Shown: piece by piece, positions 33,009-39,237 of the stretch
How positions within the stretch are numbered: position 1 is the first letter of the stretch
Layout of the letters: every line of letters starts with the position of its first letter
IMG/VR virus record: IMGVR_UViG_3300033069_001465
DNA from: a virus
Lineage: Duplodnaviria > Caudoviricetes
Reading direction: 5' to 3' (one strand)
Length of the DNA: 64,000 nucleotides
Made by a program: the position numbers and the translations under genes
Notes under the pieces: model-generated
What the model was told of the DNA's origin: nothing
The model's database searches: none
What the model saw: only the letters and a program-made list of their open reading frames with translations

Positions 33009-33722
33009 TTAATCCCATAACCAATCTGCCCCACTGTAATTATCCTCAAATTCACAGTCTTTTCCATCCATTATATTAAAAAGAGTTTGTTTAGACTTAG
33101 CTCTTTGTGATCTATTTAAAAATTTTCTGAAATGTTTGGGCGCTTTTCTATGTCTTCTGTAATTTTTACATTCATGGTAAAACTTAGTATCAAGAATGTA
33201 TTCAATTTCAGCTTCTTCTTGTTCAAGAATAGTGCTATAAATTTTTACTTTAGTTTTATACTCTTTTTCATATTTGATATCAAAGTAAAAATTTGGTATT
33301 TTACAATAGTAAGATTTTGAATGTCTGTTCCATCCATGTACATGGAATGGAATCTCATCAGTAAACCATTTTTTTATTTGTGGAGGAAGATTAAGATAAG
33401 TCCATTCATTAATTCCATGTATGCGAGGCATATGATAAATCATTGTTTTGTATATAGATTTACCTTTCCTTTCCCAATCAAAAAGTTCAATTTTTTTAGC
33501 AAATGTTTTTGTTCCGAAATTTTGGCAGATATACCAGAATACCCAAGCATCATCACGATTTTGTATATCTTGTCTTGGTTCAAGATAAGCATTGTATCCA
33601 ATAAATTTGGGCTCAGTAAGTTCAGACCAACCTAAACTCCTTTGTGTTTCCCAATTTTTAGCAAGTTGCTTCTGAAGGCGAATGAATTCCTTCTCTTTTT
33701 CAAAGTGTTTGTTTTTTCTCAT
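33009..33722 (-). CDS. Basic hypothetical protein downstream of tmRNA
   Basis: 237 aa, Lys/Arg/aromatic-rich; preceded by a uORF and hairpin. Confidence 0.65.
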   Translation of the reverse strand: MRKNKHFEKEKEFIRLQKQLAKNWETQRSLGWSELTEPKFIGYNAYLEPRQDIQNRDDAWVFWYICQNFGTKTFAKKIELFDWERKGKSIYKTMIYHMPRIHGINEWTYLNLPPQIKKWFTDEIPFHVHGWNRHSKSYYCKIPNFYFDIKYEKEYKTKVKIYSTILEQEEAEIEYILDTKFYHECKNYRRHRKAPKHFRKFLNRSQRAKSKQTLFNIMDGKDCEFEDNYSGADWLWD

Positions 33723-33741
33723 ATATTTTGTTAGTTTTTAA

Positions 33742-33786
33742 CTAACAAAATTTGAGCTCTTTGGTGTAGATGTATATTTTAATCAT
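33742..33786 (-). promoter_or_regulatory. Putative leader uORF (MIKIYIYTKELKFC*) ending inside a 12-bp hairpin
   Basis: Hairpin 33725-33751 ends 2 nt before the downstream ATG; the uORF TAG lies in its 5' arm. Confidence 0.45.
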
Positions 33787-33792
33787 AAAAAG

Positions 33793-33818
33793 AAATAAAC
33801 AGCAGTCCAATTCCGCTG
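33793..33818 (-). terminator. Putative intrinsic terminator of the tmRNA transcript
   Basis: CAGCGG-AATTGGA-CTGCTG followed by TTTATTT. Confidence 0.5.
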
Positions 33819-33832
33819 AGGTTATTAAAAAG

Positions 33833-33912
33833 AAACCAACTCGGCTGACCAGAGAAAACACCTACCTATTTTTTTCAAGGCTGTCCAGCTTTTTATCCTA
33901 CCTTGTTGGTTT
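33833..33912 (-). ncRNA. Structured hairpin RNA B with two YAGG/YUGGWCAG internal loops
   Basis: AAACCAAC/GTTGGTTT base stem; motif shared with hairpin A. Confidence 0.5.
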
Positions 33913-33916
33913 TTTG

Positions 33917-34281
33917 TGGAGGTGGGGAGCTCCGACTCTCCCGTCTTCTTCAGTTAATAATAACTAATCATTTACAAGCTTAGATAATTTTTCTAAAGTA
34001 TCAAAATAGTTAGTTAATTTATACTCACAAATAACTTAACAAAAACCTATCACTATTTACTGTTGTGATTCAGGTGAATTTTTTTATGAAAGTATCAATT
34101 AAGCTACTTCAAGCTCATTCACAATGAGTAAGTTGTTGCGTAGAGCAAATACTAAATCTTCTTTGCTTGCTACTTCGTTTGTTTTGCCGTTTAAAGCGTT
34201 GATGTCAATTTATTAATCGGATAACTCAGCCGATGCTTGCTTAACTACCATTACGATGCGAATCTATTCCAATTCACCCCC
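33917..34281 (-). ncRNA. ssrA: Phage-encoded tmRNA
   Basis: 5' GGGGGTG pairs with 3' CACCTCC-A giving G3-U70; GAC-GGGAG/CTCCC T-arm; 365 nt; internal tag ORF 34188-34099. Confidence 0.88.
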
Positions 34282-34287
34282 ATAATT

Positions 34288-34352
34288 TAAAGAAACTGAC
34301 CAGAAGTGCGTCCTATCTTTTTCAGACTGACCAAAACCTTCCTGTTTCTTTA
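34288..34352 (-). ncRNA. Structured hairpin RNA A (tmRNA 5' leader) with two YAGG/YUGGUCAG internal loops
   Basis: TAAAGAAAC/GTTTCTTTA base stem; starts right after the promoter. Confidence 0.5.
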
Positions 34353-34383
34353 CAAAGATATATATAATATTTGAAAACTCAAA
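34353..34383 (-). promoter_or_regulatory. Bacteroidota-type promoter for the tmRNA locus
   Basis: TTTG-N19-TATCTTTG. Confidence 0.75.
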
Positions 34384-34388
34384 AAAGT

Positions 34389-34685
34389 TTAAATTTCAAT
34401 AGTGAAAAACCAAGGATCTTTCGAATCTTTTGGATATTTAGATTTACCCATGATGATATCAATAAGTTCATTACCATTTATACCAACAATTTTCCTTGCT
34501 AGAATTCCTGTTTTGCCACTATCAATCAGATTTTGAATATTATCCTCAATAGGCAATTCATTAAGTGATTTTGGTTTTCCTGGTTGTGTTGATGCTATAC
34601 GGAAAGCATCTTTTTCATCTTTAGCAATAATAAAGTGTGACTTTGCATTTTTACCTTTATTATGGACATCATAAAATTTATTCAT
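34389..34685 (-). CDS. Hypothetical protein
   Basis: 98 aa ORF in the early operon. Confidence 0.55.
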   Translation of the reverse strand: MNKFYDVHNKGKNAKSHFIIAKDEKDAFRIASTQPGKPKSLNELPIEDNIQNLIDSGKTGILARKIVGINGNELIDIIMGKSKYPKDSKDPWFFTIEI

Positions 34686-34694
34686 ATTTTTATT

Positions 34695-35171
34695 TTAAAT
34701 TGTTAATAGTAAATTTAACTTATTATTTCTTATTATTCTTTCTCTCTCATCTTTTTCTTCACATATTCTATAGACTGAGCAAGAATCGTTACCAACATTC
34801 CAAATAGCATCAACTTCATATTCATTAATATTAATATTGGACTTTGTTTCATTCCAATATATATCATAAGCATTATAATTATGCAAAAGGGTCCCTCGTC
34901 CTTTTACTAAGGTTAAAAATCCTTCATTTTTAACAAGTAATTTATTACTCATTCTTGCAGCATTTTTTATCTCTCTAATAGAGTCTTCATTAAAGCTCGA
35001 AGAAGATTTATCTAAATTGTAAATTTTATTAAAGGTATTTGAAAATTCATACCCAATATCCCAGGATATTTGATTTGCCCAATTTGTATATGTATTATAC
35101 AAAATGAGATAATCATGATTTAACTGATGATCATATAAGAAAACCGAGTATATTTTATAGATTAAGTCCAT
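34695..35171 (-). CDS. Hypothetical early protein
   Basis: C-terminal IRNNKLNLLL. Confidence 0.6.
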   Translation of the reverse strand: MDLIYKIYSVFLYDHQLNHDYLILYNTYTNWANQISWDIGYEFSNTFNKIYNLDKSSSSFNEDSIREIKNAARMSNKLLVKNEGFLTLVKGRGTLLHNYNAYDIYWNETKSNININEYEVDAIWNVGNDSCSVYRICEEKDERERIIRNNKLNLLLTI

Positions 35172-35795: not shown

Positions 35796-36017
35796 TTACA
35801 AAGATATGACAATTCCACGAATTATCCTAACAATATCTATGGTACTTACTACCAAACACTTATTAGTTATTTCGTCTATTCTCCTTTTGGGTATATCATA
35901 ATGTGTTTTATGAAACCAACATCTTTTAATATTAAGATTATCTGCCATTTTATGTAAGTTTTCAATGGAGTATGGAATGCAAATTAGATGTCTTTTAGTA
36001 TCACAATAATATTTCAT
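35796..36017 (-). CDS. DUF4031-like small protein
   Basis: S-x-ENLHKMA...KRCWFH...HYDI pattern. Confidence 0.55.
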   Translation of the reverse strand: MKYYCDTKRHLICIPYSIENLHKMADNLNIKRCWFHKTHYDIPKRRIDEITNKCLVVSTIDIVRIIRGIVISL

Positions 36018-36786: not shown

Positions 36787-37227
36787 TTAAAATGGAACTT
36801 CGCCTTCAATATCATTTAATGAAGTAGGTGCCGCCACATCTTCATCATAGAAGAATTTAGCTGTTATTAAAGGTTCACCACTTTTGACTTCCCATAAATC
36901 GAACTCAGATTCGTATTGTATTAGGATATCAGTTTCTAGCTTCTTAAGTAGATTCATAATTTTCATAACACTACCTATTTTTTCTGTTTTATTTAAAACA
37001 AATTGAACATTAATGCTGCCTTCATCATCAGTAAATACATAATAATTCTCAAATCCAGAATTTTTTATCATTTTTCTAAGTGTAGATAGTAAGTTTTCAA
37101 TGATATCATCCTGAGCTATTTCTTCAACTTCCTCAAGTTCAGGAATTTCAGGATAGTCATCTAATGGTTGATCTATATCATCAAACCCTTCTCTTTCGTT
37201 AATTTCAAAGTATTTTTTAAGTTTCAT
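36787..37227 (-). CDS. Acidic hypothetical protein (start revised to MKLKKYFEINE)
   Basis: ATG at 37227 immediately after the upstream stop. Confidence 0.6.
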   Translation of the reverse strand: MKLKKYFEINEREGFDDIDQPLDDYPEIPELEEVEEIAQDDIIENLLSTLRKMIKNSGFENYYVFTDDEGSINVQFVLNKTEKIGSVMKIMNLLKKLETDILIQYESEFDLWEVKSGEPLITAKFFYDEDVAAPTSLNDIEGEVPF

Positions 37228-37228
37228 A

Positions 37229-38839
37229 TTATCCAATTTGTATTTTTAAAATGTTACCATCAAATTTTATATCAGGATTACATCTATGCATTAATAAAAT
37301 TGTTTCAATTTGTGATAAATCATCATAAGCATTTCTTAAAGAGACATCATCAAATTCAATTGAAACAACCACTTTACCTTCTACTCCTTTAATAGTAGAA
37401 TCATTGAAAAATATCGACTCTTTTAGATCCCTTATTAAGTCAGACCATTTTTCCAATACTTCAGAATCAAATCCAATTTTTCTCTTTATAGTAAGTTTAT
37501 TCCAATCAGCGGCTACACAAGCTTTGGCTAATCTTTCTAAATAAGTCATATTCTGAATCTCATCGTGTGTATGTTCATTAAAATATCCAACAGATACATT
37601 AGTACACTCTGGAACATAATCAACAAAATTATAGGAATCAGTAAATACACCTGTAGGATCTAGGTTCAATTTTAAACCACTTTTATTTAATTCTTTACAA
37701 AGTGATTCAGCAAACTCATTTGAGCAGCATCTCATTCCCATTTGCTCTGTGATAACAGAAAAGTAGTTTCTTCTATCAAATGAAATTACTTTCTTAATTT
37801 CTTTAAGAAATTCAAATGATTTGAAATCATCAGCCACTTTACCAGATCCAATTCCACCTCTTTCTTCACCTAAGAAGAAATAATAAACTCCTGGAACATT
37901 ATGAGCCATCATATACATCATTACTGCAACTCCAGCTTTATCATCTGCTCCTAGAATAGTTGTACCATCACTCATTATGTAATCTTGTCCATTTTTTGAC
38001 TGTGCTACTAATATAATATCACTTTTATCTCTTGATGCTGTATCTAAGTGTGATGTAAACATAGTATCGGATTTACCAATTATATGGTAAAGATTACCAT
38101 ATTTATCAGTTTGTAATCCTTCTGGTAAATATTTATAAACACCTTCTTCATGACCATGTGGATATGTTTCGGTTGTTAATGATATAAAAGTGGATCTAAC
38201 ATCTTTAGGATTAAATTTGAATTCAGGTACTTGAATCTCATCATCAGATTTATTGAGTGCTCTATTTTTAATTTTATTGTAATCCCTTACAAAGTTATAT
38301 ATTGTTCCTTTGTCAAATTTATTTCCAAAAAATGTTCTTATGAATTCCGCTATTTTAATTAATCCCCTTCTTCCATTTGGATAGTAAACATCAAAGCTGA
38401 AATCTGTATCAGAAACATCTAATTTCTCAATGCCAAATTTATTTTTTATTTCGGGATTTTGCTCAATATCAAGCAGTGCCCAACAAATTTGATCATCTAT
38501 TTTATCCAACATCATTGCGAAGTCATCCGTAAATTTAATTTGGATACTTTCTTTATCAATTTGTTTTTTACCGCTTCCCATATTTTTATTTGATATGTTT
38601 TTAAAAACCTTTAAAAATTCCTCAAACTCTTTCTTGTTGTATTTAGTATATCCTAAAACCTCTTCAAGTACCTTCATAGTAAGACTATCCTTGCCGATAG
38701 TAATTTTTTCAGTATAGTTAGGTGCATTTGAATTAATAGCTTTCAGATCATTAATAAGCCTATTGACTTTTTTTATTCCTAATTTTTCCATAGAGTCAAA
38801 GATATCACTTGCTCCTTTTGTTAAATAAACTCCTGTCAT
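37229..38839 (-). CDS. M20/M28 zinc peptidase with N-terminal extension
   Basis: SHLDT, LGADDKAG, GEE, FDRR, NEHT metal-ligand motifs. Confidence 0.85.
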   Translation of the reverse strand: MTGVYLTKGASDIFDSMEKLGIKKVNRLINDLKAINSNAPNYTEKITIGKDSLTMKVLEEVLGYTKYNKKEFEEFLKVFKNISNKNMGSGKKQIDKESIQIKFTDDFAMMLDKIDDQICWALLDIEQNPEIKNKFGIEKLDVSDTDFSFDVYYPNGRRGLIKIAEFIRTFFGNKFDKGTIYNFVRDYNKIKNRALNKSDDEIQVPEFKFNPKDVRSTFISLTTETYPHGHEEGVYKYLPEGLQTDKYGNLYHIIGKSDTMFTSHLDTASRDKSDIILVAQSKNGQDYIMSDGTTILGADDKAGVAVMMYMMAHNVPGVYYFFLGEERGGIGSGKVADDFKSFEFLKEIKKVISFDRRNYFSVITEQMGMRCCSNEFAESLCKELNKSGLKLNLDPTGVFTDSYNFVDYVPECTNVSVGYFNEHTHDEIQNMTYLERLAKACVAADWNKLTIKRKIGFDSEVLEKWSDLIRDLKESIFFNDSTIKGVEGKVVVSIEFDDVSLRNAYDDLSQIETILLMHRCNPDIKFDGNILKIQIG

Positions 38840-38850
38840 ATAGGTATATA

Positions 38851-39237
38851 TTATTTTTTTTCAATGATTATTTCATCAGCGTTATTATAATCTACTTTAA
38901 CTTGTCCAGCATTCATTCCTTTTGCTTTTTTAACGAATTTTTTCTTACAATAAAGTACTTTAATACTATTATCTTTTGATTTACAATTCTTAGCAGCTAT
39001 TAAAGCCACCTTTTTAATTGTCTCTTGTGTTGGTAGTTTGTCTTTTATTTTCATTACGACGTGACTACCGGGAACACCTTTTGCATGAAACCACATATCA
39101 TTATCATTTGCTACTTCTAATGTAACATAATCATTTGCCTCAGCATCTTTTCCTTGATATATAACAAAATCATCAATTATAATTTTTTTGAAATTAGGAC
39201 CTGATTTTTTTGATTCAAATGTTTTTAAATATTTCAT
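38851..39237 (-). CDS. Stand-alone NFACT-R (DUF814) RNA-binding domain protein
   Basis: GKDAEAND, DMWFHAKGVPGSHVV, G-x2-AGQV. Confidence 0.85.
   Translation of the reverse strand: MKYLKTFESKKSGPNFKKIIIDDFVIYQGKDAEANDYVTLEVANDNDMWFHAKGVPGSHVVMKIKDKLPTQETIKKVALIAAKNCKSKDNSIKVLYCKKKFVKKAKGMNAGQVKVDYNNADEIIIEKK

Follow-up and report, generated by a model that had tools for sequence, protein, structure and literature searches.

A probable one-piece tmRNA of a 'Mahaphage' megaphage with a long conserved tag and a non-canonical T-loop

Judged from its sequence, a minus-strand region (Table 1) of the window, by which we mean the whole 64,000-nt (64 kb) stretch of viral DNA analysed here, is a genuine one-piece phage tmRNA, the RNA of ribosome rescue. 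We estimate with a probability of roughly 0.78 that it is a functional ssrA gene carried by a T4-like megaphage from the 'Mahaphage' clade, for which the predicted host phylum is Bacteroidota (PMC7162821). This reading draws on homology to bona fide tmRNAs, a conserved structure, a coding signature in the tag frame and the co-occurrence of SmpB in related phages. Standard finders mostly miss this tmRNA subfamily, which is known here from phage and metagenome DNA only.

The Rfam tmRNA model RF00023 was matched end to end in an Infernal search of a 1.2 kb sub-region of the window (model positions 1-374; 30.2 bits, E 4e-10). This score lies below the gathering score of the model (47 bits), at which the window yielded no match, and ARAGORN made no tmRNA call in the 64 kb. 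Because the sequence falls under the operational cut-offs of both tools, its membership rests on homology through our family model R1. This model gave 316 bits for the window tmRNA, its sole match within the window, and 218 and 206 bits for the homologs L184 and L189, both of which exceed the Rfam gathering score (86.1 and 75.5 bits). ARAGORN calls L184 with a resume codon homologous to that of the window tmRNA, and this was the only call obtained for the window and 14 other family loci (1/15); Rfam at E<=0.01 returned no match for loci L001 and L002. A preliminary description, made from the letters of the window, had proposed a phage tmRNA at this position. The end-to-end match, the R1 link to the Rfam-passing L184 and L189 and a total of 37 distinct homologs bear this out. 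The two programs that it named as a check gave a mixed answer, positive for Infernal at a sub-gathering score and, for ARAGORN, negative on the window and positive on L184.

The 37 homologs come from megaphage and metagenome contigs, and 17 family members were picked up in IMG/VR with R1 (a plain 15-mer scan gave mostly chance matches). Subsets of the family were used below: nine sequences for the covariation alignment, 25 tabulated members, 33 members for pseudoknot PK2 and 21 distinct tags. In the homolog of LR756501 the tag frame and PK1 were seen, and a search for its tRNA-like ends did not find them. A gapped-pattern scan of 596 Gb of bacterial genomes gave seven matches, none of which fitted R1, the Rfam tmRNA model or ARAGORN. 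Since this number is close to our estimate of the chance expectation, it provides no evidence for a bacterial or prophage copy.

Table 1. Features of the tmRNA gene and its surroundings in the window.
Feature	Position (nt)	Strand	Pairing, support or comment
One-piece tmRNA gene	33914-34281	-	368 nt as aligned; full-length RF00023 match
Acceptor stem, 5' strand GGGGGUG, with G3 of G3-U	34275-34281	-	Pairs with 33918-33924
Acceptor stem, 3' strand CACCUCC, and discriminator A (33917)	33917-33924	-	Next bases CAA
D-loop-like segment ..UUGGAAUAGAU.., GG dinucleotide within	34263-34274	-	GAAUAGAU invariant in alignment A3
Helix 2, 5' strand	34235-34262	-	Pairs with 33947-33979; 25 pairs, 9 changed on both sides
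PK1, stem AUCGG/CCGAU and loop GUUA pairing with downstream UGAC	34204-34234	-	Covariation
Frame-setting UAAAC before resume codon (U at -5, A at -4)	34189-34193	-	U-A in 25/25 tabulated members
Tag frame: resume GGC, 29 sense codons (34188-34102), UAA (34101-34099)	34099-34188	-	Coding signature
Covarying hairpin inside tag frame	34140-34173	-	Helices 6-7
PK2, CUG/CAG hairpin, loop AUCAC pairing with downstream GUGAU	34049-34073	-	Covariation
3' hairpin	33983-34002	-	Helix 9; 8 pairs, 5 changed on both sides
T-arm GGGAG / AGUCGGAG / CUCCC	33925-33942	-	5-bp stem; 8-nt loop 33930-33937
Terminator-like hairpin and T-rich run	33800-33818	-	About 95 nt beyond tmRNA 3' end
5' leader hairpin, promoter box to mature 5' end	34282-34352	-	71 nt; fold -17.2 kcal/mol, z -2.26
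Promoter-like box TATCTTTG	34353-34360	-	Fits Bacteroidota -7 box TAnnTTTG; comparison with L192 and L171
149-aa protein, upstream, syntenic	36787-37236	-	tblastn matches in 29 family loci
M20/PepT-like peptidase homolog, upstream, syntenic	37229-38839	-	phrog_4191 237 bits; PepT-like metal motifs; tblastn matches in 31 loci
NFACT-R domain protein, upstream, syntenic with tmRNA	38851-39237	-	NFACT-R_1 49 bits; tblastn matches in 19 family loci

The nine-sequence alignment supports a common fold. Across its 69 pairs, 94.9% of the cells were paired, against 36-48% with slid partners, and changes on both sides were seen in 31 pairs, where the slid controls had 5-11; none of 500 shuffles matched the observed values. 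Every major helix shows compensatory changes among homologs. The alanine-type acceptor stem put forward in the preliminary description is present, GGGGGUG facing CACCUCC followed by A. The G3-U pair and the discriminator A are found in all nine aligned sequences and all 25 tabulated members, while acceptor pairs 5 and 6 covary in the alignment (GC/AU/GU and UA/AU). PK1 is counted within the 69 pairs: its stem AUCGG/CCGAU is invariant, and its second stem is 93.8% paired and covaries (GUCA/UGAC, GUAA/UUAC, GUUA/UAAC). For the window, a 3-nt deletion made it necessary to set the register of PK1 manually. PK2 covaries additionally and occurs in most of the 33 members, with the compensatory forms UUCAC/GUGAG, UUUAC/GUAAG, CUACA/UGUAG and UAAGU/ACUUA. 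Owing to the many indels further on, PK3 and PK4 were not delineated by column-wise covariation scans; the 3' hairpin is probably a remnant of PK4.

The T-arm combines a covarying stem, in which five of the six modelled pairs changed on both sides across homologs, with an unusual loop. As had been noted from the letters, the loop is non-canonical and 8 nt long, and CCA is not encoded. The loop AGUCGGAG has G at the places normally taken by U54 and A58, keeps U-C at the 55/56-equivalents and departs from the 7-nt UUCRANY. The same loop recurs in four distinct sequences, on T-stems that are not all alike (GGGAG/CUCCC versus CUGGG/CCCAG); in L192 and L171 it sits on a T-stem other than that of the window. 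Most relatives present GGCRGUR loops, and L184 and L189 the canonical UUCGAAU; the base preceding the conserved D-loop G tracks the T-loop class, GG going with xUC loops, AG with GGC loops and UG with UUC loops. Members with the canonical UUCGAAU loop have this long tag too, so that altered loop and long tag are to be regarded separately. The loop of the window is a third variant beside the alphaproteobacterial-like GGCRGUR loops, with 8 nt and U-C at the 55/56-equivalents. No mention of GGCRGUA turned up in the literature. An earlier suggestion that the altered loop evades host RNases found no evidence in our analysis, and G in place of the U341/U342-equivalents (the U54/U55 positions) also occurs in Caulobacter (one G) and in Reclinomonas mitochondria (GG) (PMC1168896). 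At the 3' end the window reads ACAA, and CCA is encoded in five family members (L070, L181, L184, L165 and L189). The window tmRNA would thus have to acquire its CCA post-transcriptionally, and the mature RNA probably ends with the discriminator (33917) followed by the added CCA. The 8-nt loop, which SmpB, EF-Tu and AlaRS would have to accept, the absent CCA, the sub-gathering Rfam score, the missing ARAGORN call and the failure to find smpB in the window were counted against the functional reading.

The tag frame carries a coding signature. In the window, UUUAAAC directly precedes the resume GGC, and no ATG, GTG or TTG lies between the upstream in-frame stop and this codon. The U and A of the frame-setting motif are equivalent to U85/A86 of E. 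coli, of which A86 is essential (PMC2481249). The resume codon GGC and the 29-codon frame, also part of the preliminary description, agree with the position that ARAGORN assigned in L184. Tag length is 29-30 codons in all 25 tabulated members, an in-frame 3-nt insertion included. In nine sequences, all with non-canonical T-loops, the variable sites of the tag number 12, 14 and 20 at the three codon positions. The same sequences contain 144 synonymous codon differences in the tag frame, where the two alternative frames have 82 and 52, no stop against 46 and 17, and milder replacements (mean BLOSUM -0.05 against -1.15 and -1.03). Over 21 distinct tags, the core EDLV.AL.NN and hydrophobic residues are conserved beyond the last few residues. 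The C-termini are EVA, ETA or ATV, that is, apolar Ala/Val endings and not LAA, so that ClpX-type recognition is not implied. Part of this conservation stems from RNA structure, as the hairpin inside the frame couples codons 7-9 with codons 13-15, and all four of its inner pairs changed on both sides (GCAAA/UUUGC versus CCCGU/GCGG). Our comparison of the homologous sequences indicates that the tag peptide itself is under selection.

Partners of such an RNA were found in related phages. In the 64 kb window, tblastn with six phage SmpB sequences gave chance-level matches only, whereas six related megaphage genomes encode SmpB (167-186 bits); the search for a phage smpB that had been recommended thus failed in the window and succeeded in its relatives. 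Three SmpB-encoding close relatives with complete or near-complete genomes contained no second tmRNA candidate. All three encode a CCA-adding-family enzyme, two to three ClpP paralogs, ClpS and a ClpA-like ATPase; searches of them for Lon, a true ClpX and SspB had no result. The SmpB and the ClpP/ClpS/ClpA-like set of the relatives would fit a phage-run pathway, and it is plausible that the window RNA, as first proposed, rescues ribosomes while altering the fate of tagged proteins.

We infer the following course for charging, tagging, CCA addition and degradation of the tagged proteins. The tmRNA would be transcribed from its own promoter, its 5' leader and 3' trailer trimmed and CCA added after transcription. 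Alanyl-tRNA synthetase would charge it with alanine by means of G3-U70 and A73, and a phage SmpB encoded outside the window would bring it to stalled ribosomes. Translation would resume at GGC, set by PK1 and the U-A at -5/-4, and alanine plus 29 residues would be appended before termination at UAA frees the ribosome. The hydrophobic clusters and the apolar C-terminus would most likely pass the tagged fragments to an AAA+ protease, for which the candidates are one of the host or the ClpA-like/ClpS/ClpP set of the phage.

Other readings accept a working tmRNA and see its tag differently. It is possible but unlikely that the tag is not mainly a degron and instead serves as a handle for a phage factor, by which tagged fragments would be sequestered, relocated, marked or cut by the prohead protease. 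The core conserved over 21 distinct tags, well beyond the C-terminus, and the ending that is not LAA-like would suit such a handle, as would a V-x-E/D triplet that is frequent near the tag end. The preliminary description had likened the triplet VNE to a putative head-protease site. However, any 29 residues from the proteome of this phage would contain about 0.5 [LIV]-x-E triplets by chance, homologs also read VGD, VED and VNK at the same position (D or K in three tags), and the triplet is followed by L or P rather than by the S of the proposed xxE|S sites; we rejected this link as unsupported. Further arguments against a handle are that tagging is cytoplasmic, that T4-type head-targeting signals are N-terminal and that a scan of 3.2 million residues, covering the window and every locus fetched, revealed no protein with a matching tag core. 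Its apolar Ala/Val C-terminus and its hydrophobic clusters also make the phage tag resemble that of Mycoplasma, which is read by Lon (PMC8403727).

More radical alternatives deny the RNA its function in tagging. An untranslated decoy, with the RNA or the tRNA-like domain in it titrating SmpB or shutting off trans-translation in the host, would explain the altered T-loop and missing CCA as signs of lost charging, and both a TLD-only phage molecule (of mycobacteriophage DS6A) and an inhibitory TLD have been described (PMC4131195). We regard it as highly improbable, because the coding signature, the constant tag length and the stop are kept in the very lineages with non-canonical T-loops, PK1 and the frame-setting U-A are conserved, and related phages encode their own SmpB. 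Scarcely credible is a tmRNA pseudogene in decay, or a chance resemblance to tmRNA in a structured RNA or a small ORF of unrelated origin. The sub-threshold Rfam score, the missing ARAGORN call and the poorly delineated PK3/PK4 region would be expected of such a look-alike, but compensatory changes in every major helix among 37 distinct homologs, an orthologous locus across the family and the lack of a start codon ahead of the resume codon all argue against it. Moreover, homologs satisfy the standard tools (L184 both of them, L189 Rfam).

A functional tmRNA could also be part of something larger. We propose, as a speculation that we think rather doubtful, that trans-translation and proteolysis form a private pathway in these megaphages, shielded from that of the host and with its own parts and tag reader. 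The remodelled D-loop/T-loop elbow would then be matched to the phage SmpB, CCA would be supplied by the phage's own CCA-adding enzyme, and the conserved tag core would be a specific handle for a phage-encoded reader. Candidates for the reader would be the ClpA-like/ClpS/ClpP set or the products of the tmRNA-adjacent NFACT-R, peptidase-like and 149-aa genes. If such a pathway exists, the phage and not the host would set the fate of truncated proteins during infection.

The window tmRNA shares with E. coli 10Sa and other bacterial one-piece tmRNAs the G3-U stem, the discriminator A, a D-loop-like segment, a long helix 2, PK1, the U-A at -5/-4, a start-less frame running to UAA, PK2, a T-arm and a length of about 370 nt. 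It differs from them in the 8-nt loop in place of the 7-nt UUCRANY, in the lack of an encoded CCA and in a PK3/PK4 region that is reduced or not delineated, and from E. coli in a tag of 29 codons instead of 10 that ends in EVA instead of LAA. The statement that Bacteroidota tags are short, resume on Gly and end in ALAA-like degrons was confirmed in one genome, Flavobacterium sp. JP2137, whose tmRNA (155 bits) is easily detected by ARAGORN and Rfam. It has a G-starting resume codon (Gly), like the phage RNA, and encodes GENNYALAA, so that the phage tag is far longer than this host-type tag (29 codons versus 9). R1 found no match in the tmRNAs of Flavobacterium and Lewinellaceae. Among megaphages of the clade, Lak-B5 and LR756504 (portal proteins 30-55% identical) also encode SmpB and, unlike the window tmRNA, score above the Rfam gathering score (48 and 65 bits). 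The tmRNA of LR756504 is matched by R1 over its full length (67 bits), its tag begins in a similar way (DNVN) and its T-loop contains GUCG like that of the window, but its 24-codon tag ends in VAA and its CCA is encoded. In Lak-B5 the loop is the canonical UUCGAGU, and the tag has 10 codons and ends in MAA. The two-piece permuted tmRNA genes of Caulobacter and Reclinomonas contrast with the one-piece phage family. A parallel in tag character is the Mycoplasma ssrA tag, with 27 residues, many of them hydrophobic, and an apolar non-LAA C-terminus, although it has no sequence similarity to the phage tag (PMC8403727). Lon is the only ATP-dependent protease of the cytosol in the mycoplasmas studied (PMC8403727), whereas in the phage relatives Lon was not found and ClpP, ClpS and a ClpA-like ATPase are present. 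Other phages with their own ssrA are Bacillus phage G, the Bxz1-like mycobacteriophages and DS6A, the last TLD-only (PMC4131195). These resemble our case as large phages and differ in phage group and host, and the accessible text of that source describes neither a conserved long tag nor a remodelled T-loop for them.

Huge phages were already known to carry tmRNA and SmpB, in a survey that assigned tmRNAs by ARAGORN (PMC7162821). Given how few family loci ARAGORN detects, three related megaphage genomes (483-642 kb) seem to have SmpB without tmRNA. Recognising the subfamily closes this annotation gap, and R1 or a seed alignment of the 37 sequences would recover the family. Our results also suggest that a single lineage can accommodate three or more non-canonical T-loop solutions in the tmRNA elbow, one of them resembling the alphaproteobacterial G-substituted loops. 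A tag of 29-30 residues that is conserved in sequence, and not at its C-terminus alone, raises the testable question of whether its reader, a protease or an adaptor, comes from the host or from the Clp machinery of the phage. Metaproteomes could further be searched with the tag for cases of phage-driven tagging.

The tmRNA locus is orthologous across the family. In the six loci read, the NFACT-R, peptidase and 149-aa genes keep their order and strand, with the tmRNA last. Being of the aminopeptidase type, the syntenic M20/PepT-like peptidase was rejected as an evident candidate for reading a C-terminal tag. The box TATCTTTG may act as a promoter, fitting what we take to be the Bacteroidota -7 consensus, TAnnTTTG. 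L192 and L171 present a near-identical box directly upstream of the mature 5' end; the leader hairpin that separates the two in the window is found in L190 as well and is lacking in L192 and L171, and is thus a lineage-specific insertion.

The best reading of our results is that the window RNA works as a tmRNA of the phage, in partnership with a phage SmpB. The preliminary description had named ARAGORN and Infernal as ways of checking a tmRNA in this region, and the two gave different answers. No tmRNA was called in the window by ARAGORN or by Rfam at the gathering score, but a permissive Infernal search of 33500-34700 aligned RF00023 from end to end (30.2 bits, E 4e-10; gathering score 47). 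Agreement with the model was closest at the 5' end and its D-loop-like segment, in PK1, along the CUAAGC..GUA strand of helix 2, and over the T-arm and the 3' end. The elements that had been read from the sequence were borne out: an alanine acceptor stem with a G3-U pair (GGGGGUG/CACCUCC on the minus strand), a CCA that is not encoded (the discriminator A at 33917 is followed by CAA), an 8-nt T-loop (GGGAG / AGUCGGAG / CUCCC), and a 29-codon tag frame that follows UUUAAAC, is translated from 34102-34188 (minus strand) and is closed by UAA. The proposed resume codon, GGC, also agrees with ARAGORN, which places the resume codon of a homolog, L184, at the homologous position.

Homologs were collected in four steps. 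A blastn search found the RNA in LR756502 and LR745206; a gapped pattern derived from conserved blocks then yielded 10 IMG/VR loci and 33 metagenome loci; nine distinct copies served to build a covariance model of the family (R1), which confirmed 26 of these 33; and R1 added 17 IMG/VR loci out of a noisier earlier scan. This resulted in 37 distinct family RNAs, whose contigs reach 483-642 kb. The window holds a single R1 match, and a near-identical copy with the same tag and a 97% identical flanking protein lies on a metagenome contig (L190). Across 596 Gb of bacterial genomes we obtained seven pattern matches, none of which matched R1, Rfam tmRNA or ARAGORN. Because about seven are expected by chance according to our own estimate, the family is seen only in phage and metagenome DNA.

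Four members (L184, L189, L181 and L165) combine a UUCGA-type, canonical or near-canonical, T-loop and an encoded CCA with the same long tag. L184, which ARAGORN calls as a tmRNA, and L189 exceed the Rfam gathering score (86.1 and 75.5 bits), and lower scores were obtained for L181 (44.3), L192 (38.3) and L128 (30.9). R1 unites L184 and L189 (206-218 bits) with the window RNA (316 bits), and the latter is thus a divergent representative of a family in which the less-derived RNAs are recognized by both standard tools. Of 15 family loci tested, 14 went undetected by ARAGORN, the program on which the survey that reported huge-phage tmRNAs relied (PMC7162821).

The predicted fold is conserved by compensatory changes. 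Pairs were counted on a nine-sequence alignment using the consensus from RNAalifold, to which the second stem of PK1 was added. Standard pairs occupied 94.9% of the cells, against 36-48% when the 3' partners were slid by 1-3 columns, and 31 of 69 pairs changed on both sides (5-11 in the slid controls); none of 500 shuffles reached any observed pairing measure. Covariation was found in acceptor stem pairs 5 and 6, helix 2, the 3' hairpin, two hairpins within the tag frame, five of six T-stem pairs and the second stem of PK1 (GUCA/UGAC, GUAA/UUAC, GUUA/UAAC). A PK2-type pseudoknot lies 3' of the stop codon: in the window, the loop AUCAC of a CUG/CAG hairpin pairs with GUGAU 12 nt downstream, and most of 33 members keep this pairing through compensatory changes (UUCAC/GUGAG, UUUAC/GUAAG, CUACA/UGUAG, UCCAU/AUGGG, UAAGU/ACUUA, UGAGU/ACUCA). 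PK3 and PK4 were not resolved between PK2 and the 3' hairpin, where the region is too indel-rich. UAAAC precedes the resume codon in the window, and UAAAU, UAAGC or UAGAC takes its place in other members, so that U at -5 and A at -4 are always present. These match the positions of U85 and A86 in E. coli tmRNA, in which A86 is required both for activity and for choosing the frame (PMC2481249).

The 25 tabulated RNAs encode 21 distinct tags of 29 or 30 codons, which begin with G/D-N/K-V/T, share the core E-D-L-V-x-A-L-Q/R-N-N followed by two hydrophobic residues, and end with V-x-E/D-L/P-x-x-A/V (e.g., EVA, ETA, ATV, AVA, FVA). The core is absent from the ordinary proteins of the window and of all fetched loci. 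Nine aligned sequences, all with non-canonical T-loops, reveal a coding signature in the tag frame: variable sites are distributed 12/14/20 over the codon positions, 144 codon differences are synonymous, compared with 82 and 52 in the two alternative frames, stops are 0 against 46 and 17, and amino-acid changes are more conservative (mean BLOSUM -0.05 versus about -1.1). An in-frame insertion of 3 nt is present in one lineage. Alternatively, the RNA could be a decoy, like the TLD-only ssrA of DS6A (PMC4131195). We disfavor this explanation because the coding signature is present in exactly the lineages with altered T-loops. Tag conservation is nevertheless partly imposed at the RNA level: a hairpin joins codons 7-9 to codons 13-15 and covaries (GCAAA/UUUGC versus CCCGU/GCGG), which forces coupled amino-acid changes (A-S-K with V-F-A versus G-T-R with V-A-A).

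The other tmRNA tags compared are shorter: GENNYALAA in Flavobacterium sp. JP2137, 10 codons ending in MAA in Lak-B5, 24 codons ending in VAA in LR756504 and 19 codons ending in AAA in a distant IMG/VR relative (L048). The long tag is thus the mark of a particular megaphage subfamily. We give little weight to the proposed match between the tag and the site of the head protease. Most members present V-x-E, but three tags have VGD, VED or VNK, the following residue is L or P, and [LIV]-x-E is expected by chance 0.5 times per 29 residues.

Several classes of T-loop were found in the family: canonical UUCGAAU, UUCGUUA, GGCRGUR and the 8-nt loop of the window. GGCRGUR, a 7-nt loop closed by G-C, occurs in most members, including LR756502 and LR745206. 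Besides the window, L190, L192 and L171 have the 8-nt loop, on a different, compensating stem, which indicates that it is selected rather than an error, and the LR756504 loop, (U)GUCGUA(A), resembles it. A non-UUC T-loop has precedent among catalogued tmRNAs, since G replaces one of the U341/U342-equivalent bases in Caulobacter and both in Reclinomonas mitochondria (PMC1168896). In the family alignments, the T-loop class goes along with the base that precedes the conserved G in the D-loop-like segment, with GG accompanying T-loops that keep U-C at the 55/56 equivalents, AG the GGC loops and UG the UUC loops. This hints that the elbow contact may be maintained, or possibly reflects just a few evolutionary events. 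CCA is encoded in 5 of the 25 tabulated members. An enzyme of the PolyA_pol/CCA-adding family is encoded by the three close relatives of the window phage (LR756502, LR745206 and a 483 kb IMG/VR genome), and it differs from the putative nucleotidyltransferase of the window.

The window has a G+C content of ~28% and encodes a T4-type major capsid protein (Gp23 family), a Gp20 portal, an S77-like prohead protease fusion, a family-B DNA polymerase fragment and a ribonucleotide reductase. Its portal is 81% identical to that of LR756502 (642 kb) and 75% to that of LR745206 (635 kb), both labeled "uncultured phage", 51-55% to those of LR756504 and LR756501, and ~30% to those of Lak phages. These portal relatives are "Mahaphage" genomes (Al-Shayeb et al. 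2020), whose largest members have Bacteroidetes as predicted hosts (PMC7162821). The search for a phage smpB found none within the 64 kb window but succeeded in six related megaphage genomes: LR756502, LR745206, the 483 kb genome (98% complete), LR756504, LR756501 and Lak-B5 (167-186 bits). SmpB and tmRNA are ~130 kb apart in LR756502 and LR745206. Beyond a faint trace of the family RNA, RF00023 matched only tRNA-sized fragments in the three close relatives, which leaves the family RNA as the only candidate partner of their SmpB. Each of the three also encodes 2-3 ClpP paralogs, a ClpS, which had no match in a Bacteroides control genome, and a ClpA-like double-AAA+ ATPase of 710-719 aa (up to 725 bits against the ClpA model, under the equivalog cut-off); no Lon, true ClpX or SspB was found in them. 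This set suggests a putative phage-borne ClpAPS-type protease.

Acting with phage SmpB, the tmRNA would append Ala plus 29 residues; we infer its maturation by removal of the leader and addition of CCA, its alanylation, and what becomes of the tagged proteins. Degradation would be the default fate, given that the C-terminus is apolar, that the tag has hydrophobic clusters and that Clp components are phage-borne. These clusters recall the 27-residue Mycoplasma tag, which is read by Lon (PMC8403727), and the conservation of the whole tag suggests that it may have a specific reader. Already known were tmRNAs of phages, including huge ones, as well as long tags and T-loops with G substitutions. 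The megaphage subfamily as a whole was not found in the literature searched; it combines a conserved 29-30-codon tag, several T-loop solutions including one of 8 nt, frequent loss of the encoded CCA, and near-invisibility to ARAGORN and the Rfam threshold.

Features of the window at and around the tmRNA locus
Feature	Position	Strand	Evidence
Putative Pol-beta-fold nucleotidyltransferase, 256 aa	27378-28148	minus	borderline Pfam NTP_transf_2, 22.7 bits
Related UGGUCAG-containing segment 3' of tmRNA	33833-33913	minus	window only
tmRNA	33914-34281	minus	RF00023 aligned over model positions 1-374
71-nt hairpin, repeated UGGUCAG	34282-34352	minus	-17.2 kcal/mol, z -2.26
Small ORF in lineage-specific 2.5 kb insertion	35796-36017	minus	DUF4031, 35 bits
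149-aa protein	36787-37236	minus	tblastn match in 29 family loci
M20/PepT-like peptidase homolog	37229-38839	minus	tblastn match in 31 family loci
Stand-alone NFACT-R domain protein	38851-39237	minus	Pfam 49 bits; tblastn match in 19 family loci

Throughout the family, the tmRNA locus is orthologous. Six loci whose coordinates were read off have the NFACT-R, peptidase and 149-aa genes in window order, on the same strand as the tmRNA and running up to it; in the window, ~2.5 kb of small ORFs is inserted between the last of these genes and the tmRNA. NFACT-R is the RNA-binding domain of the RqcH/NEMF ribosome quality-control factors. A functional link of the three genes to the tRNA-Ala-like tmRNA is possible, and shared gene order is weak evidence of it because the phages are closely related. 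A promoter-like box, TATCTTTG, is located upstream of the tmRNA and fits TAnnTTTG, the -7 box of Bacteroidota. In the window and in L190, the 71-nt hairpin lies between this box and the mature 5' end; L192 and L171 are without it and have the box directly before the 5' end. The UGGUCAG segments look like lineage-specific insertions that would need removal during tmRNA maturation. A terminator-like hairpin lies ~95 nt beyond the 3' end.

LR756501, a phage of 735 kb, carries a partial homolog (718388-718731, minus strand) that scores 49.9 bits against R1 over model positions 42-322; it has PK1 and a tag-like frame of 33 codons that ends in VLA. Its acceptor stem and T-arm were searched for and not found, and it may be permuted, split or degenerate, although this genome encodes SmpB. 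About 180-260 nt from the tmRNA of LR756504 (L151, 2039-2114), ARAGORN predicts, beside a tRNA-Met, a tRNA of undetermined type whose anticodon (tcta) has four bases.
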